The notes beneath the pieces are model-generated. The model searched no databases. It was not told the origin of the DNA and worked only from the letters and a program-made list of their open reading frames with translations. The position numbers and the translations under genes were made by a program. A stretch of DNA of 64,000 bases from Candidatus Uhrbacteria bacterium. Its GTDB lineage: Bacteria > Patescibacteriota > Patescibacteriia > UBA9934. How positions within the stretch are numbered: the stretch's first letter is position 1; every line of letters starts with the position of its first letter. Below, in pieces: positions 1 to 46,232 of this stretch. The stretch covers positions 11,896 through 75,895 of the forward strand of contig JABJOE010000002.1 in NCBI GenBank assembly GCA_018664485.1, in the 5' to 3' direction.

Positions 1-1
1 A

Positions 2-229
2 CAAACCTGTCAGAGCAAACCTTGGAGTAGTATGCATCACTTTCTTGGTTTCATGATCCTTGCAGCGTGTTCTGCAGATCAGATGAACTCCACGAAAACC
101 CTAAACGAAGTGGAGATATTTGAAGCATCCCCAATCCAGATAATCACAATACTCCTTCTGACCTTCACCGCACTCACTTCGTTCGTTCGGGTTCTCTTGG
201 CACTGCACAGCTCCAACGACAGCCAATAA
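2..229 (+). CDS. possible 3' end of a gene that begins left of the window
   Basis: The reading frame of ORF 32..229 stays open back to the window edge. The product resembles a small hydrophobic C-terminus, with no recognisable domain. Confidence 0.2.
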   Translation, partial: QTCQSKPWSSMHHFLGFMILAACSADQMNSTKTLNEVEIFEASPIQIITILLLTFTALTSFVRVLLALHSSNDSQ

Positions 230-280
230 TCTTGTACACCTCAACGGCGGCCTTCTCAAGGTCGCCGTTTGTGCATCAAA

Positions 281-310
281 CAAAAAAACCGCCACTCGGC
301 GGTCTTCTTT
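281..310 (-). terminator. Rho-independent terminator downstream of ychF (bidirectional A/T tracts)
   Basis: The GC hairpin accgcc-actc-ggcggt is flanked by caaaaaaa on the + strand and ttttttt on the - strand, immediately 3' of the ychF stop. Confidence 0.6.
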
Positions 311-317
311 ACTCTCT

Positions 318-1394
318 CTAGACGCCTACTCGGAAGTGGCAGACGTCACCATCTTGAACGATGTACTCTTTACCTTCGACACGAAGTTTTCCGGCGTCTC
401 GAGCTTGTGATTCACCACCCAACTCTACAAAATCACTGTATGCAATCACCTCACCTCGTATATATGCTTTTTCAAAATCAGTGTGAATCTTTCCGGCCGC
501 TTGTGGTCCAGTTGATCCAGCTTCTACTGTCCACGCACGAGTCTCCTTCTCACCTGTTGTAAAGAAGCTAATCAAATTCAATGTTTTGTAGCACATGCTG
601 ATCACTCGATCCAAACCAGACTCTTTCCATCCAAGGTCATCTAAGAAAACGCGCATGTCATCTGTGTCTAAAACTGATAACTCTGCCTCAATTTGTGCAG
701 ACACCGGAATAACCATACGGTCCTCACCGAGCGGTGACACCCAATTTGGATCACCGACAGACTCCTCGTTAACATTTACAACGTACAGAATCGGTTTCGT
801 TGTGAGAAGTTGTATATCTTTTAAAACTTCAGTTTCATCTTTTGTGAGATCTGCCTCTCGCGCGAGCGTACCGGCTTCTAGAAGAGATTTATATTTCTTC
901 AAACCGGAAACCTGGTTCATTAAAGTAACATCTTTTGATGCCTGAGCTTTTTTCTCGATTGGATCCAAACGCTTAGTAACTGTTGCAAGGTCTGCGAGCA
1001 TCAATTCCGTCTCAATTACTTCAACATCACGCAATGGGTCCAGAGAGCCATCAACGTGGACAATATCGCTATTCTCAAACGAACGAACGACGTGGGCGAT
1101 CATATCAACCTCACGAATAGTCGCTAAGAACTTATTTCCGAGCCCCTCGCCTTCGCTTGCACCCTTAACTAGGCCTGCAATATCAACAAACTCGATGGCT
1201 GTTGGGATGATTTTTGCTGTTTTTGAGAGGTCAGCAAGAATCTGGAGACGTTCATCTGGAACCTCCACGACACCAACATTTGGCTCGATCGTACAAAACG
1301 GGAAATTGGCACAATCTACCTGCTTTTTGGTTAAAGCGGTAAAAAGGGTCGATTTTCCGACATTTGGCAGTCCTACAATTCCAACTTGAAGCAT
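318..1394 (-). CDS. ychF: ribosome-binding ATPase YchF (Obg-family GTPase)
   Basis: The N-terminal G1 motif is [17 protein letters not shown]. Full-length YchF architecture is present, including the C-terminal TGS-like domain ([15 protein letters not shown]). Confidence 0.9.
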
Positions 1395-1607: not shown

Positions 1608-2828
1608 ATGACCTACCTTCCAACGATGTTGGCCCTGCTCGGATTCTCTACCGCGCATGCTGCGCGAAACGAGATCCCGGCCGAGCCTACCCCCATCACC
1701 TACACAGTCTTCATTGGCCCGAGCTATGAGCTTCAGGGTCAGCCCACCTTCACCAAGGGCGCCGCAACCTGCGAAGCGCTCGCAAGCCGTTTCGAGTCGG
1801 AAACGAACCCGGCGTCTATCGCCCTGTGCGGTATCGACGCTACGAAAGATGGGATCACTTCTGCACTCTCCGTAACGGTTTCAGCCCTCACGCCACATGA
1901 CAACCTCCTGGTTGTTTATCTGGGTCAGGGTTGGGAGACACAGGGCGGACACTACAAGCTGCTGCCTGCTGACTTCTCCCTTGAAAGTGGGATCGCCGGT
2001 CTCGAAGAATCAAGCATTGATTTCGAGCGTGACTTCAAGTGGACGCTTCGCAATGCATCCAACCAAGGTGGTGAAGTCGTAATCCTGATGGACGCCGTTC
2101 ACTCCGTTCACATTGAGCTCACGCCCTCCGGTGTAGAAGAGGGGGAGCCTTCCGGAATCTTGACGATCGGACCGACTGCAGCCAACTTCAATGATGGCCA
2201 AGATGCAGGGCTGCTGATCGTTTCTGCCACAGGAGGCGAGTACACCATCGATGACGGACTCTTCGGAGGTATCGTTGAAGATTCACTCGCAGGCCAGGCG
2301 GACGAAGACGGAGACGGCAAGCTCACCTTCGGGGAGCTCAAGCTGTTCGTGTTGTCGGAAAGTGCCACAAGGACAAAAGGCCAACAGAAAGGGCTGAGCG
2401 AAGGGCCGTGGATGCTGATGCATGAAGTGCATTTCATGGACCTTCCAGTCCCGAGTGCACCGAAGCGCCAGCGGAGCGGCTTGAATGTCGCGAGTCTGCG
2501 CAAGCCTGCGCTCTACAGCGGCATCGGTCTGTCCGTTGCCGGATGTGGGGTCACGATTGTCGGGCGAGTGATGGCAAACGGTGCCTACGCAGACATGGAC
2601 GCAGGTAACTACAGCGACCGCGACCAATACAACGACCTCGTGGGCACCTACGAAACTGGTGCCGGGCTCTACCCGGTTGGAATCGCAACCTGCACCACGG
2701 GTCTCGTACTCACCGCAACGAGCTTCATTCTCGGAAAAGGGAATGGTGACAAGAAGGTCACCCTCACGCCCGCCGTGACCGGAACCACCGGAGCCAACGC
2801 AACCGTCGGATTCACCGCTCGCTGGTGA
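1608..2828 (+). CDS. secreted EF-hand calcium-binding protein with a possible degenerate caspase-like (C14) core; GC-rich, likely horizontally acquired
   Basis: Signal peptide MTYLPTMLALLGFSTAHA. A canonical EF-hand loop DEDGDGKLTFGE is present. The segments LLVVYLGQGWE and VVILMDAVHS resemble the caspase His and Cys motifs with both catalytic residues replaced. A spot count gives about 58% GC against about 42% in the neighbouring genes. Confidence 0.55.
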   Translation: MTYLPTMLALLGFSTAHAARNEIPAEPTPITYTVFIGPSYELQGQPTFTKGAATCEALASRFESETNPASIALCGIDATKDGITSALSVTVSALTPHDNLLVVYLGQGWETQGGHYKLLPADFSLESGIAGLEESSIDFERDFKWTLRNASNQGGEVVILMDAVHSVHIELTPSGVEEGEPSGILTIGPTAANFNDGQDAGLLIVSATGGEYTIDDGLFGGIVEDSLAGQADEDGDGKLTFGELKLFVLSESATRTKGQQKGLSEGPWMLMHEVHFMDLPVPSAPKRQRSGLNVASLRKPALYSGIGLSVAGCGVTIVGRVMANGAYADMDAGNYSDRDQYNDLVGTYETGAGLYPVGIATCTTGLVLTATSFILGKGNGDKKVTLTPAVTGTTGANATVGFTARW

Positions 2829-2899: not shown

Positions 2900-5290
2900 C
2901 TAGTCTTCCGCACCGGCATCATCCACAACCACTTCTTCAACTCCTTCAAGTGGCACAGGAACTTCCTCGGCTGCGGCAATTCCAGCTTCTAGCCTCGCAA
3001 TTTGAGCAAGTACAGTTTCATGACCCGGATTACTTTCCAAAATAGCCAAAAGTGCATCGATAGCTGATTCTTGGTCTCCTAACTCCTCATACACAGCAGC
3101 CAAATACCAATGCGCATTTGCATAGCTTGGTGATAATGCGACAGTACGTTCCAACTCAACTTGTGCAGCGTCGATCTTCCCCTGTCGTAGATAGAGCAGC
3201 CCAAGCTGGAAAGAAACCCCTACATCATAAGGGTTTGCATCGCGCAAAACCACCATCCTATTTATTGCCTCCGACACATTACCGGAACGTTCGTATGCAA
3301 GTGCCAAGTAGTAGTAGGCTATCGCGTAATCGTCTTTAAGAGTAAGTGCATACTCCAAATTTTCAATAGATTCTACCAAGGCCTCGCGACGGCTAGTCTC
3401 GGCCACAGCAGCATACTCCTCATCATCACTTGTTGTGAGTACTGAGAGCTGGTCTGCATGCACAACATATGCACGAGACAACGCAACATAATACTTTGGA
3501 TTATTTGGAGCGAGTTCAATACTCTTTTGATACGCACCAATAGCTAGAACATCTGACCCTGAAATAAGCGGTGCAATCTCTCTATATATATCACCCAACA
3601 ATGTCCAATTGAGTACATTGCTTTCCGAAATATCTACGGCCGTCTGGGCAGCGGTCAGCGATCGTTCAACAGCAGACTGAATTTCACTTGGATGAGCTTC
3701 GTTATCTGACACCACTTCAACGGTCTTTGCCAAATATGCCTGCGCTAAATTCCGTTGATAGACATCGCTCCAACGATTCAACCGCACAGCATTATCTAGC
3801 TGCACAATCACTTCATCAGTTGTAGCTCCTTGCTCACTTAATGACACCGCTTTACCGAAAGCAACCTCCGCCCCATAGCGTGCACCTGACACGAATAGCA
3901 TGGTCAACAGAAGAACGTTCGTTATCACAAAACCGAATGTTGTGAGCAGTGCTGTTCTCGATGATTTCGAGAACGTAAATGTTTTTTCCTTCAAAATAAC
4001 CTGGCTTACCAAAATTGCCGTAAGCAGCCAGAACACAAATGATAACGTCATATTGCTCACATAGAAAAACTGAGCAAAGACACTCAACGTCCAACCACCA
4101 AATGTAACAAATGTCATTTTCCACTCATCATCACTTTGGTTTTGAACCATCAATCGCATTAGCGCCATTGCAGCCAACCAAAGCACCATCAATAAGTATA
4201 GTGCAACCGGTATTACGCCGAGTGTTGAGGTCATTGTTAGAATGTGGCTTGAACTTCGATCAAATTGTTGATCCCAAACAAGTGTTTCGTTGATTTCCGG
4301 CGAATGATACTGAGCGTAATCCATTACGAATGTTCCAGGCCCAGATCCAAATGCCCATGATTCGTTTTGCAATGTTTGCTTTGTTATGTCCCAGCTATAT
4401 TGATGAGAAATGCTCAATTCCGATGCAAATCCATTTGGCACAACGCTCGGAAGGAATAGGAAGAGCAGTGCAATGACAAATAATGCCATTGGGATTACAA
4501 ACCTACCAACTTGTGGGAATTCTTTGATCCGCAAAAGCGCAAACGAGAACAACAGTCCGGTACCTATCAACAACATCGCCCAGAACAGCCAGTAATCAAG
4601 TGCTAGCAAAATAATCGTTGATCCGATAATCGTAATAAGCATTGATAGACGTACGGCCCCACCCACAAAACCATCAGGCAAAATTCGTCTTTTCGCTGTT
4701 CGGTCATCAACTAACCACACGCTCGCAGATAGAACCGTCATTATTGATAGATATGCGCCCATTGCATAGGGAGTCCCGACTACTTCAATTGCACTCCATG
4801 AAAAGAACTGTACGAAAGATAAAACTGTAACAATCGCTGAGCTTAAAAACAGCGCACTCCACACACGTCGCTGAGTTACGGTTTCAGGTAACGTATGCGC
4901 ACCAATTGCCATCAATGCACAAAACGAAATTAATGAAATAACGCTTGTATACTCTTGCCCCGCATGACCAACCCAGCTTGTAAACGGCGCAATAGAGAAA
5001 ACGGCAGACACAACAACACCCACAACGAATGCAATTAGAAGCCACCACCATATGTGGGACCTTACTTCTGCTTTTCGCTCAACTACCATCGCGCCTAACC
5101 ATGCGATCATCGCAAGTGAGCTTCCTAAAATAAGAAGTGTTTGCTTGTTGATCTCGAGTGCATCGAGCGTCCACGGAAGCGCAAGAAGAGGGATCGCAAA
5201 TGTGAGTAAATAAAACAATCCGCGTGCTGCAGATCTGTACCACTGCGCAAGGCGGACCGTTTGTTTTGTTTGAGAGTTCATAGAACTCAT
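2900..5290 (-). CDS. O-antigen ligase (WaaL/RfaL-like) polytopic membrane protein fused to C-terminal TPR repeats
   Basis: About 12 transmembrane helices with the large periplasmic loop typical of Wzy_C/O-antigen-ligase proteins. The C-terminal roughly 300 aa carry repeated TPR-like motifs (AYYYLALAYERSGNVSEAI, AHWYLAAVYEELGDQESAI). Confidence 0.65.
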   Translation of the reverse strand: MSSMNSQTKQTVRLAQWYRSAARGLFYLLTFAIPLLALPWTLDALEINKQTLLILGSSLAMIAWLGAMVVERKAEVRSHIWWWLLIAFVVGVVVSAVFSIAPFTSWVGHAGQEYTSVISLISFCALMAIGAHTLPETVTQRRVWSALFLSSAIVTVLSFVQFFSWSAIEVVGTPYAMGAYLSIMTVLSASVWLVDDRTAKRRILPDGFVGGAVRLSMLITIIGSTIILLALDYWLFWAMLLIGTGLLFSFALLRIKEFPQVGRFVIPMALFVIALLFLFLPSVVPNGFASELSISHQYSWDITKQTLQNESWAFGSGPGTFVMDYAQYHSPEINETLVWDQQFDRSSSHILTMTSTLGVIPVALYLLMVLWLAAMALMRLMVQNQSDDEWKMTFVTFGGWTLSVFAQFFYVSNMTLSFVFWLLTAILVSQVILKEKTFTFSKSSRTALLTTFGFVITNVLLLTMLFVSGARYGAEVAFGKAVSLSEQGATTDEVIVQLDNAVRLNRWSDVYQRNLAQAYLAKTVEVVSDNEAHPSEIQSAVERSLTAAQTAVDISESNVLNWTLLGDIYREIAPLISGSDVLAIGAYQKSIELAPNNPKYYVALSRAYVVHADQLSVLTTSDDEEYAAVAETSRREALVESIENLEYALTLKDDYAIAYYYLALAYERSGNVSEAINRMVVLRDANPYDVGVSFQLGLLYLRQGKIDAAQVELERTVALSPSYANAHWYLAAVYEELGDQESAIDALLAILESNPGHETVLAQIARLEAGIAAAEEVPVPLEGVEEVVVDDAGAED

Positions 5291-5301
5291 TCTATCACAA
5301 T

Positions 5302-8300
5302 CTATACTGTCTCGTCGTCGATATCACCCTCTAACTCGCTACTCGTATCTGCAATTTCTTGCTCATCGTCTACGGTGTCGGCGTCTACATCATCCTGCGC
5401 AACCTCCGTGACTTCATCTTGCACATCATCAACCTGAACGTCGGACTCCTCTTCTTCCTCAGAGACAACTTCTTCTTCGACTACATCTTCTTCGATTAAT
5501 TCCTCTTCAACAGCTTCCTCAACTATCTCTTCTTCCTGCTCGTCCTCAACTATTTCCTCAACCTCTTCCTCGTCCGTTGTCTCATCAATATCTTCTACAG
5601 AATCGACTATCTCTTCTTGCTCATCGTCGTTATCCTCATCCTCGGCCTCGTCTGTATCGACCGCCTCTGCCGCGTCATCACTGTCGTCAACTTCTGAGTC
5701 TGTGCCATCAAGTTGTTCGCTCTGACTGTCTTCCTCATCAATCTCCTCTTCCTCTTCAGGCTGTTCATCGTCAGTTTCCTCAGGCGCGTGATCTTTCAAA
5801 TATGCAATAACCATCCAATCAACAGTTGCAGTTGATCGAACTTCATCAATCGCCGACTCTCGAATGCTAAATCCTTCATTGTCACGATTAACAGCGTAAA
5901 GTGGACCGGTTGGCTGATCAGCCGTTAGGAAAACTCGATATGAAACGCCCTGAGCAATAATGTCGTTAAAGAGTGCGTCTTCAAATTCAAAGTTAACTGC
6001 AGCCGCACCATCTTTCAGATTTGCAGTTCCGGATAACTCAACTGTTTGCTGTCGAGAGAATGTCGCATATGTCTCCACATCTTCATTCTGATATGACCGA
6101 ACAACCTGCACCACGGCACCATTCGTTGTAATAGTTCCGTCTTGCGCGATGGACCATTGCTGACCAACTCCTGTGATTGCAGCGATGTTAATGATCTGAC
6201 CGGTGTTGAAATTAACCGTTCCAGACAGATCTAATGTTGATGCGTTGGCAAGATTTGAGATCAAACTGTCGGCAAGTGGCGCCTCGTCAACCGGACCGCC
6301 GTCATAATAGGAAGGTCGGACAAATACACTCACCGAACCTACCTCTCCTTGGAATGCTTCCATAGCGTAACCGAGAATTGGTCCCGCCTCCGTTGCTTTC
6401 ATTGCGTAACCGTCTTTACTTGAAGTTGTAAGTGGATCTCCGATTGAGATATCTCCATTTTCACCTGACACATAAGTTGGTACACGACCAGAAAGTGCTA
6501 CCGGTACATGGCCCTCAATATTCTCACCCGCCAAGAACCCAGGTTGTGTTGAAATGATACCTGCGATCCGTTGATCATATGTTATTCCGGTCGATCGCAT
6601 TACGTGCTCATCGTCATTTGCAAAGACAACTACTTCTCCCGGAGCAAGCGTCTGCGCTGACGGGAACATCTCTGCAAAGTCATATGATCCAGCACCCCAA
6701 CCAGAAGCATTGGTACGCATGAAGTCTCCACCAGCACCTGACGATCCGTCGTAGTAAATGTATGTATCAGTTTGAAGTGTTCCGCGGTCAGATGGGTACA
6801 GTCGACCAGCGATTGCCAGATCTCCATCGTTATTTACGAAAGCAACTTCATCCTCATCGTCATTTAATATAGAAAGTTTGTAGTCACTACTGTCAGTGAC
6901 ATCTGTAAACATACTCATTCCAATTGTACTATCGGTATCGCCCAACATTGTAAGCGCTGATGAGATAGCTACGTCCCCGTCATCGTCAGAAATGATTCCG
7001 ACACCATGCCATCCTGGCTGAATGAATACCTGGATCAATCCGGTACCTGAGCTATGAGCTTCAAGCGCACGACCAATCGTGTATCCGACTCCTGTAGCTT
7101 TCATTGCAACTCCGTTTACCGATGATAGCGCTACGTAATCACCTATCGAGATTGACCCACCGTCAGTATTTACGTTGACCGGAACCTGTCCTAGAAGAGC
7201 TACAGGTACATACCCGCCGTCATCTTGCCAATTGTCTGTCCAGTTACCAAGTGTATTTGGATTTACAGATAAAACACCAATCACCCCCGAAGGATCATTT
7301 GCAACAACAGCTTCTCCAGATGAGGTTAGAGAAATTACATCACCTCTGACGAAATCTGCGTATGTCCCATCAAATAACTCGGCGTAATCAGACCCTGCAG
7401 ACGCAGCGGTCACCCCTCCAGACCCATCACCCTCGATGGCTCCGATAGGTGTACCTGTAGCATCTCGAAATTCAATATAATCACAGGCAGTTGTCGGAGT
7501 GCTTCCCGATGCTGTAGAACAGGCTTGAATAGAAATTCCCTGCCTATTATCGTTATCGCCCCCATTTACAAATGACGCCATGAATGTACTTGTACTCGCG
7601 TCAACTACAAGTACCTGTGAAGAGCTCGTTCCGGCTCCATTAATTTCAAAGGCGTCCCACACAAATAGATCACCAGCTCCAGTCGCCACGTTTGCGGTAG
7701 TAGGAGTAGAGGTGGACTCGATGTGAGTTGCAGAGCCATAGAAATATCCGGCATAGTTATTCGTTCCTGCACTCGCCTGACCACGTACACCGTAACGAGT
7801 TGTCCCTTCAGTATTTGAACTAAAGTCTCCACCCATAGTTGTAGTCGCTGTTCCAGAACCTGCTGTAACATTTCCAAGCACACCTTTAGCCGTTGTAATC
7901 ACACCATTGAGTGGGATCACCTGACCGTGCACACCAATTACATTTCCAACCGTCGTAGCTGCAGCATCATTCGTTCCCTGCCCTAAAACACCAACAACCC
8001 TGTTGCCTACAGCAGTTCCGTTAGTGGACTGGTTTTCAGATACACCTTTGATCGCATACATCTCTTCGATCTGTCCGGATGATGACGTGTTAACCACCTC
8101 AGACAAAAAACCAATAGGCTCATGTAATTCTCCTCCACCACCTTCACTTACGTCTGACACAAGTCTGACATGTGACCCTACTGCCTGATACGTACCGGCA
8201 CCTCCACTTGCACCAGCAGATACGGTTCCTGAGGTATCAAATGCATACGTAACCCCTGGTGACGCTCCATAATCTGGCGCTGCAAAGTGCTCTATATTAC

Positions 8301-10182
8301 CTCCCTGGAAGCTCCATCTGTCTGCTGTCGTATATGAAATTGAACCCGTATCCCCTGCACTCGAGTACATATTAAAATCTGCGCTAGTACCCGCACCGTC
8401 ACCAAGACGCATCAAATTTGCAGACTCATCAATCGAAAATGCTGATGCCAAAACCGATGCACCTACAGAAAAATCATCAGTTGACGCGGTCGATACAAGT
8501 CCTGACCCTGAATTCAATGTTAAATTCCCACTTCCGCCAGATAGAACTTCCAGTGCTCCAGTAGACGCAAAAGTTGTATCATCGATAGTTAAAGTTCCGC
8601 TTGAATTTATTGTTAGAGCATCTCCTCCATCACCAATAATAGTTGCCTGATCAAAAGTTAGATCACCACCATCGATATCCAGAAGCATGTCGCCTGTAGT
8701 CTGGATCTCACCATCCATATAGTTTGTTGAGAAAGCTCCAGCCGTAAATCCAATATCTGAGAACACCTCTCCGTCAGCCTCAATGCGGAACACGTTATTA
8801 TCAGTAGATCCGAAGTTTGTTTGGATATTAAAAATGTCTGCCGTATCAGTTGTTTCAGTTACATCAATAGACAATGCCATTCCCGCATCATTAGTAAAGT
8901 TCCCACCAACCAGATCCAAAATATTACCGGCAGTTAGCACGTCTGCTGTAATAACGGCAGCACTAGCAGTAGTCGCCTCGGAATCAATATCAAAGGCAGG
9001 TGCCGTCGCTGTATTGCTATCGATCAATAGCACTGACCCTGTTGCCGCAGTATTATTCTGAGTAATAGCAAGCAATGACCCTGTTTCATTTAGAGTTCCA
9101 CCGTTCGCAGTAGTACTCGCTCCTAAAATCGATACAAACGGACCAGATACATTTACAGTGGTAGAACCACCGTCTGACGTTAGATCGCGTACAATATCCA
9201 ACCCCATTCCAGTATATGCAGTTGTACCGGATGTATATGTCGCTGAATGATCTGCGCGTATCAATTTTCCGGAAGTAAGAGCAGAAGACGTCGAACCAAC
9301 ATCGATACCAATACCCGTTGTGAGCGCATCGAGCGACCAGCTCATTGCAGTCGCAGTTGTCAGACTATCTGCCAACAAAGCGATAGCTGGAGCAGTAGTT
9401 CCATTGTATGTGTATTGAATCTGTCTTGAGTCGTTTATATTCAGGAACTCCGTACCTGCATCCTGCAAAATAAAATCTCCAGTACTTTGAAGGTCGACTA
9501 TAAGATCAAGCCCGGCTCCATCTAGTGAAAACTCTAAATCAGTCGCATCAACATTCAAAATGGTGTCGCTACCGTTACTATAAACTTGGTCTAAATTAAA
9601 GTCTGCAGAGCTTAGACCATCAAGAGATTCGGCATTCAGCGCGTATGGAACGGAGTCAACCGCCTTTCTTGGCGTAAGAGTCTCACCTCCAATATAAATC
9701 TGTAAAAACGTAGATGCGTTGTCAGCGAATATCGAATCACCAATCGCAGCCCACGGTGAAGCATCACCAGTGTCACCCATTCGTGCAGTAAACAATCCGT
9801 CAGTAAGCGTTACGGTTCGAGCAGTCGTAGATGCTGGTGTGTCCGAGTCACAAGTAGCTGAAGAGTTTGACCAAAGACAAGTTCCACCCGTAACTGCAGA
9901 GTAAATCTCGAACTTCATGCTAGCGGTTGCATCTGTAACTGGCACACCATTAGAATCAAGAACTCTTCCCTGATATGAAACTGTATTTGGAGGTGAAACA
10001 GCTTGAGCGTCCTGAGGGCCATTAAACGTTACCCCAAACCCCATTGAAATCCCAAGCAACATCACAAGCAATGCTGTGATGCGCGTAAACATCTGTCGTA
10101 ATGATTTCACTCTGTAACTACTCATAAGGTTGGGACTTGGTCCCGCGTGGGCTGATACCCACACGTCTGATTTCTCAGACAT
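5302..10182 (-). CDS. giant (1626 aa) secreted/surface protein, Thr/Ser/Gly-rich beta-rich body with internal repeats and a poly-acidic tail of roughly 190 aa (D/E-rich)
   Basis: N-terminal signal/anchor (alternative start M20 at 10125: MSSYRVKSLRQMFTRITALLVMLLGISMG). Two internal repeats of about 60 aa are present (GQVPVNVNTDGGSISIGDYVAL..AMKATGVGYTIGRALEAH and GRVPTYVSGENGDISIGDPLTT..AMKATEAGPILGYAMEAF). The C-terminus is almost pure D/E (EEEEEIDEEDSQ...DDETV). Confidence 0.7.
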   Translation of the reverse strand: MSEKSDVWVSAHAGPSPNLMSSYRVKSLRQMFTRITALLVMLLGISMGFGVTFNGPQDAQAVSPPNTVSYQGRVLDSNGVPVTDATASMKFEIYSAVTGGTCLWSNSSATCDSDTPASTTARTVTLTDGLFTARMGDTGDASPWAAIGDSIFADNASTFLQIYIGGETLTPRKAVDSVPYALNAESLDGLSSADFNLDQVYSNGSDTILNVDATDLEFSLDGAGLDLIVDLQSTGDFILQDAGTEFLNINDSRQIQYTYNGTTAPAIALLADSLTTATAMSWSLDALTTGIGIDVGSTSSALTSGKLIRADHSATYTSGTTAYTGMGLDIVRDLTSDGGSTTVNVSGPFVSILGASTTANGGTLNETGSLLAITQNNTAATGSVLLIDSNTATAPAFDIDSEATTASAAVITADVLTAGNILDLVGGNFTNDAGMALSIDVTETTDTADIFNIQTNFGSTDNNVFRIEADGEVFSDIGFTAGAFSTNYMDGEIQTTGDMLLDIDGGDLTFDQATIIGDGGDALTINSSGTLTIDDTTFASTGALEVLSGGSGNLTLNSGSGLVSTASTDDFSVGASVLASAFSIDESANLMRLGDGAGTSADFNMYSSAGDTGSISYTTADRWSFQGGNIEHFAAPDYGASPGVTYAFDTSGTVSAGASGGAGTYQAVGSHVRLVSDVSEGGGGELHEPIGFLSEVVNTSSSGQIEEMYAIKGVSENQSTNGTAVGNRVVGVLGQGTNDAAATTVGNVIGVHGQVIPLNGVITTAKGVLGNVTAGSGTATTTMGGDFSSNTEGTTRYGVRGQASAGTNNYAGYFYGSATHIESTSTPTTANVATGAGDLFVWDAFEINGAGTSSSQVLVVDASTSTFMASFVNGGDNDNRQGISIQACSTASGSTPTTACDYIEFRDATGTPIGAIEGDGSGGVTAASAGSDYAELFDGTYADFVRGDVISLTSSGEAVVANDPSGVIGVLSVNPNTLGNWTDNWQDDGGYVPVALLGQVPVNVNTDGGSISIGDYVALSSVNGVAMKATGVGYTIGRALEAHSSGTGLIQVFIQPGWHGVGIISDDDGDVAISSALTMLGDTDSTIGMSMFTDVTDSSDYKLSILNDDEDEVAFVNNDGDLAIAGRLYPSDRGTLQTDTYIYYDGSSGAGGDFMRTNASGWGAGSYDFAEMFPSAQTLAPGEVVVFANDDEHVMRSTGITYDQRIAGIISTQPGFLAGENIEGHVPVALSGRVPTYVSGENGDISIGDPLTTSSKDGYAMKATEAGPILGYAMEAFQGEVGSVSVFVRPSYYDGGPVDEAPLADSLISNLANASTLDLSGTVNFNTGQIINIAAITGVGQQWSIAQDGTITTNGAVVQVVRSYQNEDVETYATFSRQQTVELSGTANLKDGAAAVNFEFEDALFNDIIAQGVSYRVFLTADQPTGPLYAVNRDNEGFSIRESAIDEVRSTATVDWMVIAYLKDHAPEETDDEQPEEEEEIDEEDSQSEQLDGTDSEVDDSDDAAEAVDTDEAEDEDNDDEQEEIVDSVEDIDETTDEEEVEEIVEDEQEEEIVEEAVEEELIEEDVVEEEVVSEEEEESDVQVDDVQDEVTEVAQDDVDADTVDDEQEIADTSSELEGDIDDETV

Positions 10183-10193
10183 GTGCTCACCAA

Positions 10194-12851
10194 CTATTCC
10201 TCGTCTTTCTTTTCGTTCTCCATATGTACGTCAACAGAAATAAGTTCAGGTTCTTTTTTCTCCGAATAATCAATTGGTCGAACCTCTGTTTTTTCAAATC
10301 CAGGCTTCTCGAACGTTACATAATACGTATTTGGTCCCGCCATAAAGGCGTAATGACCCTTTCCGTCTGTAAGTGTTGATTCGATTAGCTTGTTATATTT
10401 TGGCTCAAATAGACGAACCACAGTATTTGGAAGTGCTGCCTTGTCTGTCATTGTTCGAACGATTCCCCAACCTTTCTGCTTTTTGATGCGATGAGTCAGA
10501 ATACCCGTTGCCGCATACATGAATGCGTGTATGAAAACGATTACAAAACTCAGAACAGTCAGCTGAATAAATGCCACAACGATCGCAACTACCAGCCCTG
10601 CTATTGCAAGAACATGCTGGAAGATTCGAAGGAAGCGCATCATCACCAATCGTTTTGGCGTATGTAGTTTTTCAGCTTGATCAGGGTCCACTGGAATATT
10701 GGGCGTAAGAAGTACCTGATTTGCATCTACCTCAATCACACCACCCGTATATACATCAAGATAATTTCCATCTTGACTCTTTCCAGCCATGTAATCACTT
10801 GGGAATACGAATCCGGCTTTCGCCACCTTCATCGAATACCGACCCTCTTTCACCTTAAAGAAGAACCTACCCTCTTTGTCAGTTACTCGTGTCTGAACGA
10901 TCTTCCCCTGCTCACTATACAAACGAACGATAGCAAGGTCGACGGGCAATTTTGTAATACCGTTGTAGACTAGTCCGAATTTTTGTCGTCTTCGTCGTGC
11001 GAAGAACAGAATCGGCGCTGTAAATAGATAGCGCAGATAGTTCAACAAGTTAAATGATGTGGCAAGAACTCCAACGCTTGTCGCTGCGACAACGACGGTT
11101 ACCGGTGACGCCACTTCTGCGGCCACCTGAACCTCTGGGATTTCTCTTACCTCATTTACAACATCACTTATATCCGACACAAATGCTTGTGCTACATCAA
11201 CTGCCGTACCAACCACAGCAACGACTGCTATGCTCGATTCGTCAGACTCCGTATCCACAACCGGAGCCTCTATAGGCTCGAGTTCAATACTCGGATTCAA
11301 AATTCCATTTGAAACGAAAATTTGTTTCTCTGCATCGATGTATCCGGATTTTCCAGCCGTCACAAGATAAGAACCGTTTGGCACATACCAAGCGAATGCT
11401 CCATCTTGCAAGACTGTAATGGGATTTGACTGATCGTAGTCAGTTGCATCCCACTGATGTAACGAGTCTCCGCCTTCATAAACTATGACAATTGCGCCGT
11501 CAACCGGCGTACGCTCGTCGTCCAAAAGCTGGTAAACAACCCCTAAACTCTGAACGTTCCAATCGTAATAGTCAGTTATCACTTCGTCGTCACCATATGT
11601 AACAACAACCGTCGCTACAGTATCTTCAGACGCAGTTTCAACGACGCCTGCGTAGACATCGTCATCCGTTTGTGACAATTCGTATTGATTATCTCCAATA
11701 ACTAGGATAACCGTCGTGACATCATCTGAGTCGGCAACCTCAACAGATACAACTACCTCTGTGTCTGGTAATACATCAATATCTTCATCCTCCCCGAGGA
11801 AAACACTACCGTCATTACTGCTTACGGTTGTGTCGAAAGATCTTGAGTTGTCTGATCCCGATCCTGAATCACCAGAGTCATCATCGTCTGTCGATGAATC
11901 ATCTTCTGTGCCAGGGTCTTCGTCATCAGTATCGTCATCTGGATCATCGGAGTCTCCTCCCGATCCGCCGCCGCCTCCTCCGCCATCACCTGAATCGCCT
12001 CCGGAGTCTCCTCCGGAATCTCCGTCTCCGTCTCCACCACCGCCGTCGTCACCAGAATCTCCTGGGTCATCTTCTGAATCATCACCTGGGTCATCATCGG
12101 TGTCATCTCCAGGTTCCTCTTCATCATCACCTGGATCTTCTTCGGTGTCGTCACCGGGATCATCTTCATCGTCACCCGGATCATCATCGTCACCATCTCC
12201 GTCATCACCGGAATCTCCGCCATCGTCCCCTCCGCCGCCGCCTCCTCCACCTCCGCCTCCACCTCCACCTCCTGATTCTGGAATGGTAGCTGAAACCGTT
12301 CCGTCATCATTTGATGCGATTGGCAAAACTATCGTTCCGCCCATTCCTGAGGTACCGGCAACTGTTAGAAAGTATGAAGCTGCGTTTGATGGGTTTGTGA
12401 TCTGAAACGCTCCCGTTCCAGAGGATGTTGCGTTCGTTCCTATTTCCACAATAACTTCACTCGCACTTGCAACCGCTCCGCCGTCACCGGCGCATATTGT
12501 AAAAGTTACAAGGCCTGAAGATATTGTCACAGATACTTCCTCTGATCCTGTGCAGTTTGCCGCAGTTGTCAGGTCAACCCCATCGTCTGATATGTCGATG
12601 GAGTCTTCTACTATAGAAGACGTTGTGAAACTCGATGGAAAATCGATTGTAAAGGTCTCCCCTTCGTCGATCGCGTCTGAGACGGTCATGACGATCTTGT
12701 GATTGGATGCTTGTGAAACCTCAATTGATGACGGCTGGTCATACGCTGACGTAAGCGTTGTTGCCGCCAATGTTAAAGACGCCCAAGGCCCTAGAAGGGC
12801 GCTCAAGGTTATAAGGACGATCCAGAAAATGGCACGAAATGTGCGAATCAT
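10194..12851 (-). CDS. large surface protein with poly-Gly and acidic D/G/P-rich low-complexity linkers, C-terminal TM helices and two carboxypeptidase-regulatory-like domains
   Basis: The ORF runs to 12926; the probable start is M26 (MIRTFRAIFWIVLITLSALLGPWASLTLA, signal-like). It carries a 15-residue Gly run and a DDPGDDxxxDPGDD repeat. Two C-terminal segments match the CarbopepD_reg pattern (TDKEGRFFFKVKEGRYSMKVAKAGF; TDGKGHYAFMAGPNTYYVTFEKPGF), following transmembrane helices. Confidence 0.65.
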   Translation of the reverse strand: MIRTFRAIFWIVLITLSALLGPWASLTLAATTLTSAYDQPSSIEVSQASNHKIVMTVSDAIDEGETFTIDFPSSFTTSSIVEDSIDISDDGVDLTTAANCTGSEEVSVTISSGLVTFTICAGDGGAVASASEVIVEIGTNATSSGTGAFQITNPSNAASYFLTVAGTSGMGGTIVLPIASNDDGTVSATIPESGGGGGGGGGGGGGGGDDGGDSGDDGDGDDDDPGDDEDDPGDDTEEDPGDDEEEPGDDTDDDPGDDSEDDPGDSGDDGGGGDGDGDSGGDSGGDSGDGGGGGGGSGGDSDDPDDDTDDEDPGTEDDSSTDDDDSGDSGSGSDNSRSFDTTVSSNDGSVFLGEDEDIDVLPDTEVVVSVEVADSDDVTTVILVIGDNQYELSQTDDDVYAGVVETASEDTVATVVVTYGDDEVITDYYDWNVQSLGVVYQLLDDERTPVDGAIVIVYEGGDSLHQWDATDYDQSNPITVLQDGAFAWYVPNGSYLVTAGKSGYIDAEKQIFVSNGILNPSIELEPIEAPVVDTESDESSIAVVAVVGTAVDVAQAFVSDISDVVNEVREIPEVQVAAEVASPVTVVVAATSVGVLATSFNLLNYLRYLFTAPILFFARRRRQKFGLVYNGITKLPVDLAIVRLYSEQGKIVQTRVTDKEGRFFFKVKEGRYSMKVAKAGFVFPSDYMAGKSQDGNYLDVYTGGVIEVDANQVLLTPNIPVDPDQAEKLHTPKRLVMMRFLRIFQHVLAIAGLVVAIVVAFIQLTVLSFVIVFIHAFMYAATGILTHRIKKQKGWGIVRTMTDKAALPNTVVRLFEPKYNKLIESTLTDGKGHYAFMAGPNTYYVTFEKPGFEKTEVRPIDYSEKKEPELISVDVHMENEKKDEE

Positions 12852-12891
12852 AGTTTGCGAACAACTCCAGATATTTATGAAGCTGCTCAGA

Positions 12892-13770
12892 TTACGGACC
12901 GCGGGAAAATCTATGCATCCAAGCAAGGAGACCTAGAATAACGAGCGCGAAGAGTGCGCCTTTCCACGGAAAGATGATGATGTGTTGACGAGCATGAAAC
13001 ACTTCTCCGTCTTCCCATGGCTGAACTTCAAGGTCGACAGTGAAAAGACCAATAGCAAACGGTTGCTTTGTGTCTTCTTCCTGTTCTCCCCAATATGTTG
13101 TGAAGGTGCGTGTCTGCCCGCTCACAGCTCGTGAGCCCTCCACATTGACGCTATTTAAAGCGACTTCCCGGCCAAATAGGCTGGTAATACGCATCGATCC
13201 TTGTGGGATCACGACGCGTTCCCCCTCATTGCGAACACTTAGATGACCTATCACCGGCAAAGACCAACCGCCAGACGATTCAATTGTGGCATCAAGCCAA
13301 TAAACTGATTCATAGACGGGTCCAACAGTAATAAATCCTAGCGAAACAATCGCTGTCTGTACGCCAATACCCTGCGATGCCTGGTTTTGACGAGTAACCT
13401 TTACTCCGAATGTGATGACTTGAGGCTCCAAATCATCAGGTGGAGTGAAAGCTAGGTCGATCGTTCCCTGTGTGTTTGCAGCAAGCGAGAGCACGCCATC
13501 ATCAATAGAAATCCATGATGCAATTTCCTCATCCAATTTGGAGAAAGAAATTTCCTCGTACGTCTCACCAATATGTACTTGTATAATCTCGAGTTCGTAT
13601 GTCGCCTCGTCATTTTGATCATTCACCAAAATAAGTTGAGCGTCACCGGTTTCTCCTGCTGTAATTGTGACGTCGAAACTTTCCGGCCACAGCTCTTCTG
13701 CTAAACCAATATTGGGGGGAAGTAAAAGCAGTAGAGCGAAGAGGCATATGTACTTAGTAATTCCCGACAT
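12892..13770 (-). CDS. secreted protein with N-terminal signal peptide and C-terminal TM anchor (hypothetical surface protein)
   Basis: ORF to 13803; the likely start is M12 (MSGITKYICLFALLLLLPPNIGLA). C-terminal hydrophobic anchor ALFALVILGLLAWMHRFSRGP. Co-oriented with the surface operon, overlapping it by a few nucleotides. Confidence 0.55.
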   Translation of the reverse strand: MSGITKYICLFALLLLLPPNIGLAEELWPESFDVTITAGETGDAQLILVNDQNDEATYELEIIQVHIGETYEEISFSKLDEEIASWISIDDGVLSLAANTQGTIDLAFTPPDDLEPQVITFGVKVTRQNQASQGIGVQTAIVSLGFITVGPVYESVYWLDATIESSGGWSLPVIGHLSVRNEGERVVIPQGSMRITSLFGREVALNSVNVEGSRAVSGQTRTFTTYWGEQEEDTKQPFAIGLFTVDLEVQPWEDGEVFHARQHIIIFPWKGALFALVILGLLAWMHRFSRGP

Positions 13771-14674
13771 ACAGCACGGTAAGTACGTGGGAATAACTTC
13801 CATCCGTTTGAGAGCTGGTCATTCCAGCTTTAAGCGTAATGAAGTTTCTACTTGCAAAGATACTCGCCGACTCTGTTGCGATTGCTGCAAGTGTGGTTGT
13901 GATCGCCGTGTCTTGCGTGTCAAAAGTTGATGACGTAATGGATGAATCCGATGCTCGCGCACCGTATTCAGTTGATCCTGCAGTCACAGCTCCGTCACTT
14001 ACGTCTGTAATTGTGTTTGATCCATCTATTAGATCTGTATCTTCGCTGATGTAGATATCAAACCCGGAATCAACATCGCCTGATGCCTCCCAAGCAACAA
14101 TTGATGTCGCTACTGAGGAACCTGTAAGGGTTCCGAGGGAAAGTGATGAGGCATTTAGCCGATAAACTACGTCATTGCTACCGTCTATAGTTAATGAGTC
14201 ACCTGAAAGCGAGTCAATAATCAAGTCGGAGCCTGACACTGATGTGATCTTTCCTATAGCTGTTGATTGGCTTGCGCCCTCATCTTGTACAATCGCTACC
14301 ATCTGATCAGCACTAAATCCACTTGTGCTTGCAATGGTTACAGTTGTGCCAGACAGAGCACTTGAACCTACTTGGCTACTTCGATCTTGCAGATAGAGAT
14401 TAAAATCTACGACCCGATCATAGATACCACCTCTATGGCCTGCATCAAAGGAATAACTCGTTGATGTCGAATTACCTTCTGCCACACCACCAATTGAATC
14501 GCGGAGTTGATATGACGCTGATGAGCTGGAATCGCTCCCGCCAGCATTAATCACATCCCAATCAATTCGATAATTGGTTGATGACATTTGGGCATTTGCC
14601 ACCTGAGTTATAAGGAGCAATACAAATGCACATAAAGTAAGGGGGAATGCAGTGCGCACATTCATACACAGCAA
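13754..14674 (-). CDS. secreted Ser/Thr-rich beta-strand protein (first gene of the surface-protein operon)
   Basis: Signal peptide MLCMNVRTAFPLTLCAFVLLLITQVANA. The mature N-terminus is SSTNYRIDWDVINAGGSDSSSSASYQLRDSIGG, followed by an S/T/D-rich body. No known domain was recognised. Confidence 0.55.
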   Translation of the reverse strand: MLCMNVRTAFPLTLCAFVLLLITQVANAQMSSTNYRIDWDVINAGGSDSSSSASYQLRDSIGGVAEGNSTSTSYSFDAGHRGGIYDRVVDFNLYLQDRSSQVGSSALSGTTVTIASTSGFSADQMVAIVQDEGASQSTAIGKITSVSGSDLIIDSLSGDSLTIDGSNDVVYRLNASSLSLGTLTGSSVATSIVAWEASGDVDSGFDIYISEDTDLIDGSNTITDVSDGAVTAGSTEYGARASDSSITSSTFDTQDTAITTTLAAIATESASIFASRNFITLKAGMTSSQTDGSYSHVLTVLYVGNY

Positions 14675-14763
14675 TTATAAGTTGAACACATATTTGCGTC
14701 AAAGAGTGAGGGGATTATAATTTGGCCAATATTAGAGGAATCACGCTTAAAAATATGGCTAAT

Positions 14764-15302: not shown

Positions 15303-15330
15303 CAAAAAAGAACCGACTGTCGGTTCAAAT
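15303..15330 (-). terminator. Rho-independent terminator (minus strand) closing the tRNA-Arg trailer region
   Basis: Hairpin gaaccgac/gtcggttc followed on the minus strand by TTTTTTG. Confidence 0.45.
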
Positions 15331-15876: not shown

Positions 15877-15953
15877 TGGAGGCCTCGGCGGGAGTCGAAC
15901 CCACAACCCTCTCCTTAGGACGGAGTTGCTCTATCCAATTGAGCTACGAGGCC
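15877..15953 (-). tRNA. tRNA-Arg (anticodon CCU), CCA encoded
   Basis: Manual fold: acceptor GGCCTCG/CGAGGCC; anticodon loop gtCCTaa; T-arm gtggg-ttcgact-cccgc; the 3' end reads ...GCC-T-CCA. Confidence 0.8.
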
Positions 15954-23030: not shown

Positions 23031-23225
23031 ATATATTCAAGTTCACCCTGGCGATAACAGCGAGCCAGATAGTGGTTTCTTTGAGTATATTATCACGAAA
23101 GGTCCGATGCACTATGTAAGCCATAGCCAGATGCAGAAAGCCCCCACCAGCCGAAGCCGATGGGGAACTTGAGAGTCACGACCCCGAGAGGGTCGGACTG
23201 TTGTCGGGACGAGGCGAGGCCTCGT

Positions 23226-24182
23226 CTATGCGGCGGCGCGCTGGTTGCTGAAGGCCGTACCGATCGGGGTCTCCAGAGCCAACTCGGTGGCCGGGACGTC
23301 GAAGCGGACGGACTCGTCCTTGTCCACGATGGTGCACAGGTCGAGCTTGACCAGGCCACGACGACCGAGGGTCTGCATGACGATGCCCTTGGTCGGACCA
23401 AGGAGGGTCAGCTCGATGCCGGTGTTGGTCACCTTGAAGGCCCAGCCGTAGTTGCCGATGGACACGGTGGCCATCACGTCGGTGTCGCTGTAGACGCGGG
23501 TTGCGATCGGGGTCTTGTTGTCGTCGTAGCCCTTGAGCTTGGAGATGTCGATCTTGCCGTACCGAGCGCCGTCGAGGAACTTCGAGATCTTGAAGTCGTC
23601 GGAGTGCTTGGCGATGGCGAGCTTCATGTCCTTGCTCGGGATCACGGTCATGACGGCGCTCTTGCCATCGACCACGTCGAGGTGACCGGACACGGACAGG
23701 GCCACGGTGGTCTTGCCGATGTTCACCTTCTCGAAGCTGAACTCGCCGGTCTGCGTACCGATGACGGTGGACCAGGAGGAGCCGGGGTCGACGATCTTGG
23801 TGATGCCGGTGTCGTCGTAGTCGAGGGCCTGGCTGAAGTCGAGACGCTGCGCGGTGAAGTGCAGGACGTCGTTCCAGCCGTCGTCGTTGAGCTCGGTGTC
23901 GATGTCGCCGTTGGCGCTCAGAGCCGTCGCGAAGATCATGCCGTTGGTGTTCACGCCGCGAACGATGCGGTTGGTGTTGTCGGGCAGATCACTCACGTTG
24001 GAGCTGACGTAGAAGGTGCGGTCGGCCTGGTCGTAGCTGACGTGGCTGTTGGAGCCGGCGTCGAACAGGACGTCGTCGCTCATGTCGTCGTCGCTGTCCA
24101 TGTTCACGACCTTGTAGGGCGCGGTGGGCATGGTGGCGAAGAGAGCGAGGAAGGTCAGGATCTGGATCTTGTTGGTATGCAA
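23226..24182 (-). CDS. secreted hypothetical protein encoded in a GC-rich (about 63%) island
   Basis: Probable TTG start giving the signal peptide MHTNKIQILTFLALFATMPTAPYK (ORF track extends to 24284). Composition is beta-rich; the long antisense ORF 23160..24389 is a GC artefact. A spot GC count gives about 63% against about 42% genome-typical. Confidence 0.5.
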   Translation of the reverse strand: MHTNKIQILTFLALFATMPTAPYKVVNMDSDDDMSDDVLFDAGSNSHVSYDQADRTFYVSSNVSDLPDNTNRIVRGVNTNGMIFATALSANGDIDTELNDDGWNDVLHFTAQRLDFSQALDYDDTGITKIVDPGSSWSTVIGTQTGEFSFEKVNIGKTTVALSVSGHLDVVDGKSAVMTVIPSKDMKLAIAKHSDDFKISKFLDGARYGKIDISKLKGYDDNKTPIATRVYSDTDVMATVSIGNYGWAFKVTNTGIELTLLGPTKGIVMQTLGRRGLVKLDLCTIVDKDESVRFDVPATELALETPIGTAFSNQRAAA

Positions 24183-24429
24183 GGTGCACTCTTTTTGAAG
24201 TGGACTCGTAAGTCCGGGTTGTTGCTCTATCCAAGGTTGGGGTCGAGACGGCGCAATTCTGCCACAGCTAGCGAATCCTGTCAAGGGATTTGTGCAGGTA
24301 TCGGAAAAGTGGCCATAAAAGTAAAAGAAATATTTATATCTAATCTAAGCCAATATATAAGTCCACAGGCACCGGGCGTTACACAATGATGTGTCGTATA
24401 ATGCTAATATAACGTTTCTATACCTATAT

Positions 24430-45933: not shown

Positions 45934-46104
45934 AATATTTTCTAATCGATGCCGCCCCCAAGCGGTTATTCGAATGTATTCTTCACAGCGGTACAGTGCG
46001 CTGCGTGGGGAGGAAAGAAAAACCCCTTAATCTTAGGTTTAATCTCCTACAAAGTGACCTGAGGCTATCATGCCTACCTAAAAACGTCAAGGCTCTTGAC
46101 CTGC

Positions 46105-46188: not shown

Positions 46189-46232
46189 CTGGGATACTAT
46201 GCAAACCGTCGTTATACGTTGTGATTTTTTCT

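Follow-up and report, generated by a model that had tools for sequence, protein, structure and literature searches.

A conserved five-gene locus of Uhrbacteria that probably encodes a Pam-related surface appendage with a membrane-tethered chaperone

A life attached to other microbes is assumed for bacteria of the candidate phyla radiation (CPR), and to our knowledge almost nothing has been described of the organelles by which they attach. The closest system known is that of the Pam pili, described in one cultivated organism, the saccharibacterium Ca. Mycosynbacter amalyticus (Troman et al., bioRxiv 2026, 10.64898/2026.03.03.709456). Pam pilins are exported by the Sec pathway and have a beta-sandwich at the N-terminus, a linker strand that is donated and, at the C-terminus, a truncated Ig-like domain, with donor-strand exchange between subunits; PamC and PamD are PapD-like chaperones with a C-terminal membrane helix, PamT is a proposed tip subunit, PamR is an RbmA-like anchor, and PamA carries a modification on Ser356 whose nature is not identified (Troman et al., 2026). 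In addition, a "tail fibre-like protein" was found consistently at the centre of pam neighbourhoods, and Pam pilins were found mainly in Saccharimonadia and Microgenomatia, while the preprint makes no mention of Uhrbacteria, WxL proteins, tetratricopeptide repeat (TPR) proteins or glycosylation enzymes (Troman et al., 2026). Here we describe five consecutive genes, named g1 to g5 in the direction of transcription, in a 64,000-nucleotide stretch of DNA (the window) from Candidatus Uhrbacteria bacterium (GenBank assembly GCA_018664485.1, contig JABJOE010000002.1, positions 11,896 to 75,895), an organism placed by NCBI taxonomy in the Parcubacteria group of the Patescibacteria group. All five genes point in the same direction and make up a compact, conserved unit, and we regard it as reasonably probable that this unit encodes, as a whole, a chaperone-aided surface filament and fibre system of the Pam type in a single-membrane CPR bacterium.

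The operon shares with the Pam system its CPR host, Sec export, a PapD-like chaperone with a C-terminal membrane helix, the lack of an outer-membrane usher, as well as a protein in the neighbourhood that resembles a tail fibre, here g4. In contrast to Pam, which has the pilins PamT/B/A/E and two chaperones, there is one pilin gene and one chaperone in this operon, and a TPR protein resembling the Wzy_C family (g5) is part of it. The lineages differ as well, since Uhrbacteria belong to the Parcubacteria group whereas Pam has been found mainly in Saccharimonadia and Microgenomatia. The architecture is distinct from and simpler than that of Pam, it is found in another CPR lineage with g3, g4 and g5 as additional conserved partners, and its products score below all curated thresholds and are publicly annotated as hypothetical.

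Within this reading, the pilin-chaperone core formed by g1 and g2 is the part that we consider quite likely to be correct. A total of 337 homologues of g1, each about 300 amino acids long, were found and every one of them is annotated as hypothetical; with approximately 50% identity over the full length g1 is thus the best-conserved protein of the operon. It matched the NCBI model NF058579 ("CPR-type pilus protein PamT") with an E-value of 8e-12 and 45.1 bits (cut-off 240) over its N-terminal 100 residues only, and 39 of the 41 family members did so over their N-terminal 80-140 residues, the best at 8e-16. Likewise, the whole of the 148-position model NF058581 (Pam_pilin_C) was matched, with the exact C-terminus, by 20 of the 41 members, and all matches to both models remained below the cut-offs. 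These profile matches show a remote homology of g1 to the Pam proteins, to PamT in its N-terminal part and to the C-terminal domain of Pam pilins in its own C-terminal domain; judged by its sequence, g1 is a remote relative of the Pam superfamily and not a member by the NCBI rule. In an AlphaFold2 (AF2) model calculated from 41 sequences, residues 85-303 had block-mean pLDDT values of 85-97, whereas residues 22-82, which cover most of the N-terminal segment (Nseg), stayed below 50 and are predicted to be disordered in the monomer, although Nseg is the most conserved part of the protein (motif MSSTNYxIxWD..GG.D.SSS.SY.LRDS...GYR, including a Ser-rich stretch). A Foldseek search of the model against the Protein Data Bank (PDB) yielded matches of about 140 columns, mostly to the chaperone-usher pilins CfaB, PapG (pilin domain), FimG, FimA, PapA and CsuA/B, and these were weak, with probabilities of 0.66-0.99, target TM-scores of 0.35-0.50 and E-values no better than 0.002. 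The modelled C-terminal domain of g1 thus weakly resembles the incomplete Ig fold of these pilins, and the best PDB profile match, to the C-terminus of the CS17 fimbrial subunit (E 0.17), was not significant. With the chaperone-usher pili g1 also has in common a strictly conserved pilin C-terminus, and it differs from their pilins in having two domains and a long conserved N-terminal segment. The only signs of strand exchange, both of them indirect, are the conserved disordered segment and a conserved strand between the two folded domains. No paralogue of g1 was found within the window, and a TasA/camelysin-type fibre was considered and dropped because there is no Peptidase_M73 match and the fold differs.

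The AF2 model of g2 (pLDDT 94) comprises two beta-sandwich domains followed by a C-terminal membrane helix, and its best Foldseek matches were the WxLIP structures 9i1y and 9i25 from E. faecium (2e-12), followed by CsuC, CfaA, Caf1M, SafB, FimC, DraB and EcpB (1e-9 to 1e-7) and by RbmA. Both the model and the structural matches thus indicate for g2 the feature that characterizes Pam chaperones, a PapD-like fold with a C-terminal transmembrane helix. A profile of the g2 family retrieved EfmWxLIP1 at 3e-10, the only significant sequence match in the PDB, and the Pfam family PF06030 (WxLIP_PGBD) was weakly matched by 9 of 49 family members; g2 itself had no Pfam match. The protein evolves fast, with about 25% identity within the same genomes in which the g1 homologues were compared, and a profile search recovered 1460 cluster representatives, almost all of them 290-320 amino acids in length. 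The predicted structure shows g2 to be a two-domain chaperone of the PapD/WxLIP kind, tethered by its C-terminal helix in the same architecture as PamC and PamD. The chaperone fold is shared with the chaperone-usher pili (Pap, Fim, Csu, CFA/I), and donor-strand complementation and exchange, as in these pili, are proposed here. Unlike those systems, however, the locus has no usher (none of the five products matched an usher family), the cell has no outer membrane, and the chaperone is anchored in the membrane.

A preliminary description of the locus, made by a model from the nucleotide sequence alone, had proposed five consecutive minus-strand genes separated by tiny gaps or overlaps, the first two encoding small secreted proteins of which the second has a C-terminal anchor. 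All five open reading frames (ORFs) were found at the positions it gave, and when the called starts are used there is an overlap of 17 nt between g1 and g2, while gaps of 40, 11 and 20 nt separate g2 from g3, g3 from g4 and g4 from g5, respectively. On g1 to g4 signal peptides were recognized, and the membrane helix of g2 was confirmed. As judged from the 337 homologues of g1, the 1460 cluster representatives of the g2 family and the gene order described below, the genes are genuine and not chance ORFs. To assess this order, species-representative genomes were scanned with the g1 alignment, which yielded 67 loci, and metagenomes with the N-terminal domain of g4, which yielded 64 further loci. 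The 67 loci are nearly all labelled Uhrbacteria or Patescibacteria; among the records of L007, L009, L011, L013 and roughly 20 others, however, many bear the title 'uncultured Gammaproteobacteria bacterium' and one bears Methylococcaceae, which look like placeholder or mis-binned labels. In all 124 of the 124 loci that have at least two of the five families the order g1-g2-g3-g4-g5 is colinear. The module is preceded by a divergent rmuC gene and followed by ychF where the locus reaches that far, and this slot between rmuC and ychF is the same in the 67 species-level genomes. Counted by script, 45 of the 50 informative loci have a g5 gene behind a complete g4; of the five exceptions, two proved on inspection to be gene calls that are split or overlapping, with g5 present, and a third to be uninformative, which leaves about 47 of 49. 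In related loci the gap between them is often just 6-20 nt. The routine unlinking of these genes in relatives, which the preliminary description had named as an observation that would refute its reading, was not seen inside the Uhrbacteria clade.

Several natural variants of the locus bear on which parts may act together. In L100 (7056-9896) and L122 (329-3325) the same rmuC-ychF slot contains neither g1 nor g2, while g4 and g5 are kept, and the gene in the g3 position encodes a signal peptide, Nseg (g1-family HMM positions 4-81, E 1e-24), linkers and then the membrane part of g3; in L122 Cys-rich CGDG.C repeats lie between Nseg and the membrane part. The loss of g2 together with the folded part of g1 is as expected of a dedicated pair, and since Nseg here is carried by a membrane anchor without a pilin fold or a chaperone, its partner should be g4, g5, the wall or the host. 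In L133 (2031-5471), which is identical to L132 (4050-7490) and represents the same organism, g2 and g3 are fused in frame, and the junction consists of the g2 membrane helix, RRLKNTKR and the g3 signal peptide, a hint that g2 and g3 act together. A distant module, L073 (7231-17134), encodes a 361-aa protein resembling the PamT N-terminus, another pilin-like protein, a chaperone of the g2 type that is doubled in tandem (648 aa) and has two membrane helices, and a fibre of 1687 aa that has the g4-type N-domain and Gly_rich_2 and ends in Peptidase_S74 instead of the Peptidase_G2-like domains; neither g3 nor g5 is present in it. The content of L073 suggests that pilin, chaperone and fibre are the persistent core. 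About 6 kb upstream of this module lies a gene for a PMT_2 (GT-C) glycosyltransferase. In L140 (6419-10276), a 669-aa protein with the g4-type N-domain is followed by a protein with an Nseg-like mature N-terminus, SSENYSIRRCTLTNAGGQSSSD, and the pairing would therefore reach a more distant organism.

The largest product, g4, appears to be a tail-fibre-like protein on the basis of its MAT_N-like and Peptidase_G2-like matches. Its N-terminal domain matched NF053851 (Bdello_MAT_N) with 35.6 bits over residues 60-103, under the 60-bit cut-off, and Peptidase_G2 (PF11962) was found at the first of its two 'DYAE' domains in four of six orthologues, two of them above the 25-bit gathering score (30.7 and 26.7 bits); g4 itself had no match to this family at E 0.1. 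Peptidase_G2 is the autoproteolytic intramolecular-chaperone domain of phi29-type appendages such as phi29 gp12. Similar to phage tail fibres with an intramolecular chaperone and to the MAT fibres of Bdellovibrio, g4 combines a MAT_N-like N-domain with a variable stalk and two Peptidase_G2-like domains, and its length and middle part vary among species, as expected of a receptor-binding fibre; the lengths of complete orthologues lie between about 1000 and 2250 aa, and the metagenome loci contain longer ORFs. In contrast to these fibres it is chromosomal, vertically conserved and equipped with a signal peptide and a long acidic tail, and its own scores are below threshold. The profile of the DYAE domains gave only a marginal match in the PDB, to the phi29 head fibre, and that of the N-domain gave none; single-sequence searches of the PDB with g1, g2 and g4 returned nothing meaningful, and hhalign comparisons among the families of g1, g2, the g3 N-domain, the g4 N-domain and the g4 DYAE domains detected no internal relationship.

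For g3 a role as candidate anchor or platform is inferred from its sequence features. It is an alpha-helical, polytopic protein and not a beta-barrel, its ectodomain contains 129 acidic residues, and its two CarboxypepD_reg domains are probably cytoplasmic, because they are flanked by Arg/Lys-rich loops and the positive-inside rule applies. The profile of the outer N-domain found no match in the PDB, and a relative of g3 in L074 carries fn3 matches.

The last gene, g5, encodes a polytopic membrane domain followed by TPR repeats. Among the enzymes of the Wzy_C family WaaL moves an undecaprenyl-PP-linked glycan to the lipid A-core and PglL to Ser residues of proteins, and PglL, PilO and TfpO are the O-oligosaccharyltransferases for type IV pilins. 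Similar to these enzymes (WaaL, PglL, PilO, TfpO), g5 is polytopic with a large predicted outer loop, and as pilO adjoins a pilin gene cluster, so g5 adjoins a group of genes that includes a pilin-like one. Unlike them, it has no direct Wzy_C match, and an extra predicted helix would place its C-terminal TPR domain outside the membrane; furthermore, the Uhrbacteria host has no lipopolysaccharide (LPS). The topology was derived from hydropathy and the positive-inside rule, with two of the 13 helices added by eye, and it predicts an outer loop of 81 residues (aa 278-358) with the conserved motif FGSGPGTF..DY..FDR, whereas the His that follows FDR..S is not conserved across the family. A Pfam search with g5 returned TPR matches only, and PF04932 (Wzy_C) was found neither in the whole protein at E 0.1 nor in the membrane domain at E 1. 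However, the membrane domain aligns over its full length with P0077, P0078 and P0094 (7e-18 to 5e-14), which carry Wzy_C, and this family is present in 4 of 21 g5 family members (best 4.9e-14); no match to the PDB, including any solved ligase, was obtained with the membrane domain by sequence or profile. Since g5 has no Wzy_C match of its own, the relation to O-antigen ligases is transitive, and judged from these alignments it is real but remote. The polytopic domain and the TPR repeats that the preliminary description had assigned to this product are thus corroborated, while the ligase assignment holds only by way of relatives and the label "WaaL" is too specific. A literature search for an O-antigen-ligase protein with TPR repeats in Patescibacteria, and another for a paper on the WxLIP structure, yielded nothing relevant. 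Two tandem g5-like membrane-TPR genes, paralogues that have no link to a pilus, were observed in another CPR genome directly upstream of rpoB/rpoC (L004, 7716-12334).

These observations can be combined into a mechanism in which g1 would be strongly expressed from its near-consensus promoter and, after export, would be held at the outer face of the membrane by the tethered g2, which caps its open groove by strand complementation. By strand exchange g1 could then be handed on and either polymerise or dock. The assembly would be anchored by g3, whose conserved outer domain would sit on a long acidic spacer spanning the wall, while g4, probably as a trimer, would serve as the distal adhesin that binds the host or a surface, with a stalk length that varies between species. 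Nseg may be a docking element towards g4 or g5, with g4 as the favoured partner, because in two loci that keep g4 and g5 an Nseg attached to a g3-like anchor takes the place of g1 and g2. Finally, g5 might glycosylate the Ser-rich Nseg or the fibre, with its outward TPR domain holding the extended peptide, or it might act in another step of envelope-glycan assembly; glycosylation of operon products by g5 is a tentative proposal that we consider more doubtful than the remainder.

A number of points weigh against this appendage model. The scores with the Pam models lie far under the curated cut-offs (45 versus 240 bits for PamT and at most 33 versus 55 bits for Pam_pilin_C), g1 itself did not match Pam_pilin_C at E 0.01, and its Foldseek search of the PDB returned nothing that reached E 0.001. 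The best HMM match of g1 is PamT, which in the preprint is modelled as a tip subunit without a donor strand, and the operon has a sole pilin gene and a sole chaperone where Pam has more than one of each. The NCBIfam models of Pam chaperones found no match in the g2 family, and none of the operon products is an RbmA-like protein with two FnIII domains comparable to PamR, the polytopic 885-aa g3 standing in that position. Polymerisation, donor-strand exchange and the contacts of g1, g3, g4 and g5 are inference only, and the roles of the last three are derived from domain matches, topology and gene order. Moreover, L084 and L121 truly have no g5 after g4, and relatives of g5 with 26-37% identity in other CPR genomes adjoin genes for rpoB/C, mur/FemAB or poly(A) polymerase, and neither a pilin nor a chaperone nor a fibre is encoded close by, so that the g5 family extends beyond the module.

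The preliminary description had concluded that none of the structural proteins matches a known family, a statement that our searches contradict by the relations to Pam, WxLIP/PapD, MAT_N and Peptidase_G2, and it had favoured glycosylation of giant Ser/Thr-rich surface proteins with an S-layer or appendage assembly module as the alternative. Of this alternative the appendage part proved to be the better reading, given a remote Pam pilin in g1 and a tethered chaperone in g2, while an S-layer was set aside because there is no task in it for a dedicated PapD-like chaperone. The glycosylation proposal, in which an oligosaccharyltransferase of the O-antigen-ligase family (g5) would place lipid-linked glycans on the Ser/Thr-rich g1 and g4 and so form a glycosylated surface layer, is one that we take seriously but consider unlikely. 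It is in agreement with the remote homology of the g5 membrane domain to Wzy_C proteins and the predicted outward position of its large loop and TPR domain, with the position of g5, which comes after g4 at about 47 of the 49 loci and in many cases only 6-20 nt from it, with the composition of g1 (18% Ser, 11% Thr, and a conserved Ser cluster in the disordered segment), and with L100 and L122, in which the pilin fold and the chaperone are lost but Nseg, g4 and g5 are retained; the Ser356 modification of PamA might be a parallel. However, the missing Wzy_C and solved-ligase matches of g5 and its non-conserved His, the occurrence of its relatives beside housekeeping genes where there is neither a pilin nor a fibre, and the lack of glycan-synthesis genes in the operon argue against it, and g2 would be left without a role, as it would be in an S-layer. 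The supposed Ser/Thr richness of both giant proteins was borne out only for the middle part of g4, which is rich in Ser, Thr, Gly and Ala, whereas g3 is rich in Asp and Gly instead.

A different explanation would dispense with the filament and see the products as a surface complex similar to that of the WxL/WxLIP proteins, in which g2, as WxLIP does with its secreted partners, would bind and stabilise g1 and the large proteins at the wall or membrane through a complementing beta-hairpin to form an adhesive coat. The WxL/WxLIP (DUF916-DUF3324) clusters of Enterococcus and Lactobacillus encode a protein with the architecture of g2, two Ig-like domains and a C-terminal membrane helix (9i1y, 9i25), and like this operon they combine small secreted and large surface proteins in a single-membrane bacterium (PMC10599100). 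For g2, the WxLIP of E. faecium is both the nearest structure that has been solved and the one significant match by sequence in the PDB, 9 of 49 family members match PF06030, the grouping of one small secreted and one WxLIP-like protein with large surface proteins is reminiscent of the logic of WxL clusters (PMC10599100), and the best HMM match of g1, PamT, is a subunit not modelled as polymerising. In contrast to these clusters, however, searches of g1, g3 and g4 at E 0.1 found no WxL domain, the partner protein resembles Pam pilins and no peptidoglycan-binding role is implied. As the g1 family matches Pam pilin models, its fold matches are polymerising chaperone-usher pilins, and the conserved inter-domain strand of g1 is placed like the donated linker of PamA and PamB, we judge such a coat to be plausible but rather improbable. 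A domesticated or remnant prophage tail-fibre module, consisting of a fibre, its chaperone and accessory proteins, would account for the g4 homologues with Peptidase_G2 as in phi29 gp12, for the L073 fibre with Peptidase_S74 and for the weak match to the phi29 head-fibre profile. It is very hard to reconcile with the absence of PHROGs matches for g1 to g4 and of phage structural or integration genes near the operon, with the fixed rmuC-ychF slot in 67 species-level genomes and with a base composition like that of the remaining window, and we regard it as extremely improbable; it is the missing PHROGs matches and the fixed chromosomal position that indicate that g4 is not phage-borne.

If the appendage model is correct, the locus suggests that a simplified relative of the Pam system, with a single pilin and a single tethered chaperone next to a platform in the membrane, a giant fibre that varies and a TPR protein similar to Wzy_C proteins, is a fixed and vertically inherited trait of Uhrbacteria, present in more than 120 loci. 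It supplies candidates for an anchor, for an adhesin that would set the host range and for a pilin-modifying enzyme, and the variants described above (the fusion of Nseg to the anchor, the fusion of g2 to g3 and the fibre with another chaperone domain) are natural experiments on which parts touch each other. In addition, the sequence link between g2 and WxLIP ties a CPR system to a widespread and poorly understood cluster of Firmicute surface proteins. More speculatively, and in our view with little probability, the operon might be a minimal self-contained machine in which g4 is a trimeric phage-type fibre mounted through the portable Nseg on a strand-exchanged shaft or adaptor of g1, g3 is a platform that replaces the usher, and g5 represents a new class of TPR-guided, Wzy_C-like protein O-glycosyltransferases. 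If this were true, the link between g2 and WxLIP would make the WxL clusters of Firmicutes and the Pam pili of CPR bacteria two branches of one ancient system, common to monoderm bacteria and built around a membrane-anchored chaperone.

The coordinates of the genes, their predicted domains and the promoter are compiled in Table 1.

Table 1. Genes and predicted features of the operon, in the order of transcription; nucleotide positions are those of the window, residues those of the respective protein.
Feature	Residues (aa)	Position (nt)	Strand	Description
Promoter, sigma-70-type		14674..14702	(-)	near-consensus TTGACG-17-TATAAT, 11/12 hexamer positions match
g1 ORF		13754-14674	(-)	306 aa from TTG; ATG of public callers at 14665 gives 303 aa
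g1		13754..14665	(-)	secreted pilin-like subunit, 303 aa
g1 signal peptide	1-25		(-)	cleavage ANA|QM
Nseg, g1 N-terminal segment	26-85	14411..14590	(-)	most conserved part of g1
g1 small beta-barrel	86-165		(-)	from AF2 model
g1 conserved inter-domain strand	160-170		(-)	IDGSNDVVYRL, conserved form IDGSNDYVYxL; between the two folded domains
g1 C-terminal Ig-like domain	~170-303		(-)	invariably ends in conserved VG[DN]Y
g2 ORF		12892-13803	(-)	303 aa; called start 13770 gives 292 aa
g2		12892..13770	(-)	292 aa, signal peptide; two beta-sandwich domains (aa 25-150, aa 156-266); membrane helix at the C-terminus (aa 269-289)
g3 ORF		10194-12926	(-)	910 aa; called start 12851 gives 885 aa
g3		10194..12851	(-)	polytopic membrane protein, 885 aa, signal peptide
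g3 outer N-domain	32-195	12267-12758	(-)	~160 aa, well conserved, two conserved cysteines
g3 low-complexity spacer, Gly/Asp/Glu/Pro	196-340	11832-12266	(-)	~150 aa, tandem repeats at DNA level
g3 variable beta domains	after spacer		(-)	
g3 membrane helices	around 541-618 and 746-785		(-)	five in proposed model
g3 CarboxypepD_reg domains, two	625-720 and 795-870		(-)	flanked by Arg/Lys-rich loops
g4 ORF		5302-10182	(-)	1626 aa
g4		5302..10182	(-)	tail-fibre-like, 1626 aa
g4 signal peptide or anchor	31-61		(-)	
g4 conserved N-domain	58-200	9583-10011	(-)	MAT_N-like
g4 stalk	200-900		(-)	Ser/Thr/Gly/Ala-rich, highly variable
g4 'DYAE' domains, two related	900-1062 and 1100-1300	6997-7485 and 6283-6885	(-)	duplication
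g4 conserved C-domain	1300-1465	5788-6285	(-)	
g4 acidic tail	1466-1626	5305-5787	(-)	
g5 ORF		2900-5290	(-)	796 aa; called as 793 aa (2900-5281)
g5		2900..5281	(-)	793 aa
g5 membrane domain	1-487	3821-5281	(-)	13 predicted helices, N-terminus inside
g5 TPR domain	~488-793	2903-3820	(-)	predicted extracytoplasmic

The -10 box of the putative promoter ends 8 nt upstream of the ATG of g1 (14663-14665), which leaves no room for a Shine-Dalgarno sequence, and the g1 mRNA would therefore be leaderless or nearly so. Comparable promoters within 200 nt of the mature N-terminus were found in about 20 of 50 related loci, in an analysis that is noisy. The spacer between g1 and rmuC is unusually long (1.4 kb) and contains a tRNA gene (15880-15953, minus strand) as well as a strong terminator-like hairpin (15310-15326, minus strand), GAACCGACAGTCGGTTC, followed by a T-run; to the other approximately 600 nt upstream of the promoter no feature was assigned.

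At the other end of the operon a gene for a 406-aa protein with no Pfam match (1608-2828, plus strand) adjoins g5 in convergent orientation, and a weak relative of this protein (24% identity) occupies the same position in L002. Elsewhere in the window a region with a local GC content of 0.53 (23093-24389) contains long overlapping ORFs on both strands, one of 409 aa on the plus strand and one of 352 aa on the minus strand, the product of the latter having no Pfam match. The genes dnaA and dnaN lie at 45996-49049, and around 50-52 kb the cumulative GC skew changes direction, so that the replication origin is probably located in the window, roughly 35-45 kb from the operon.

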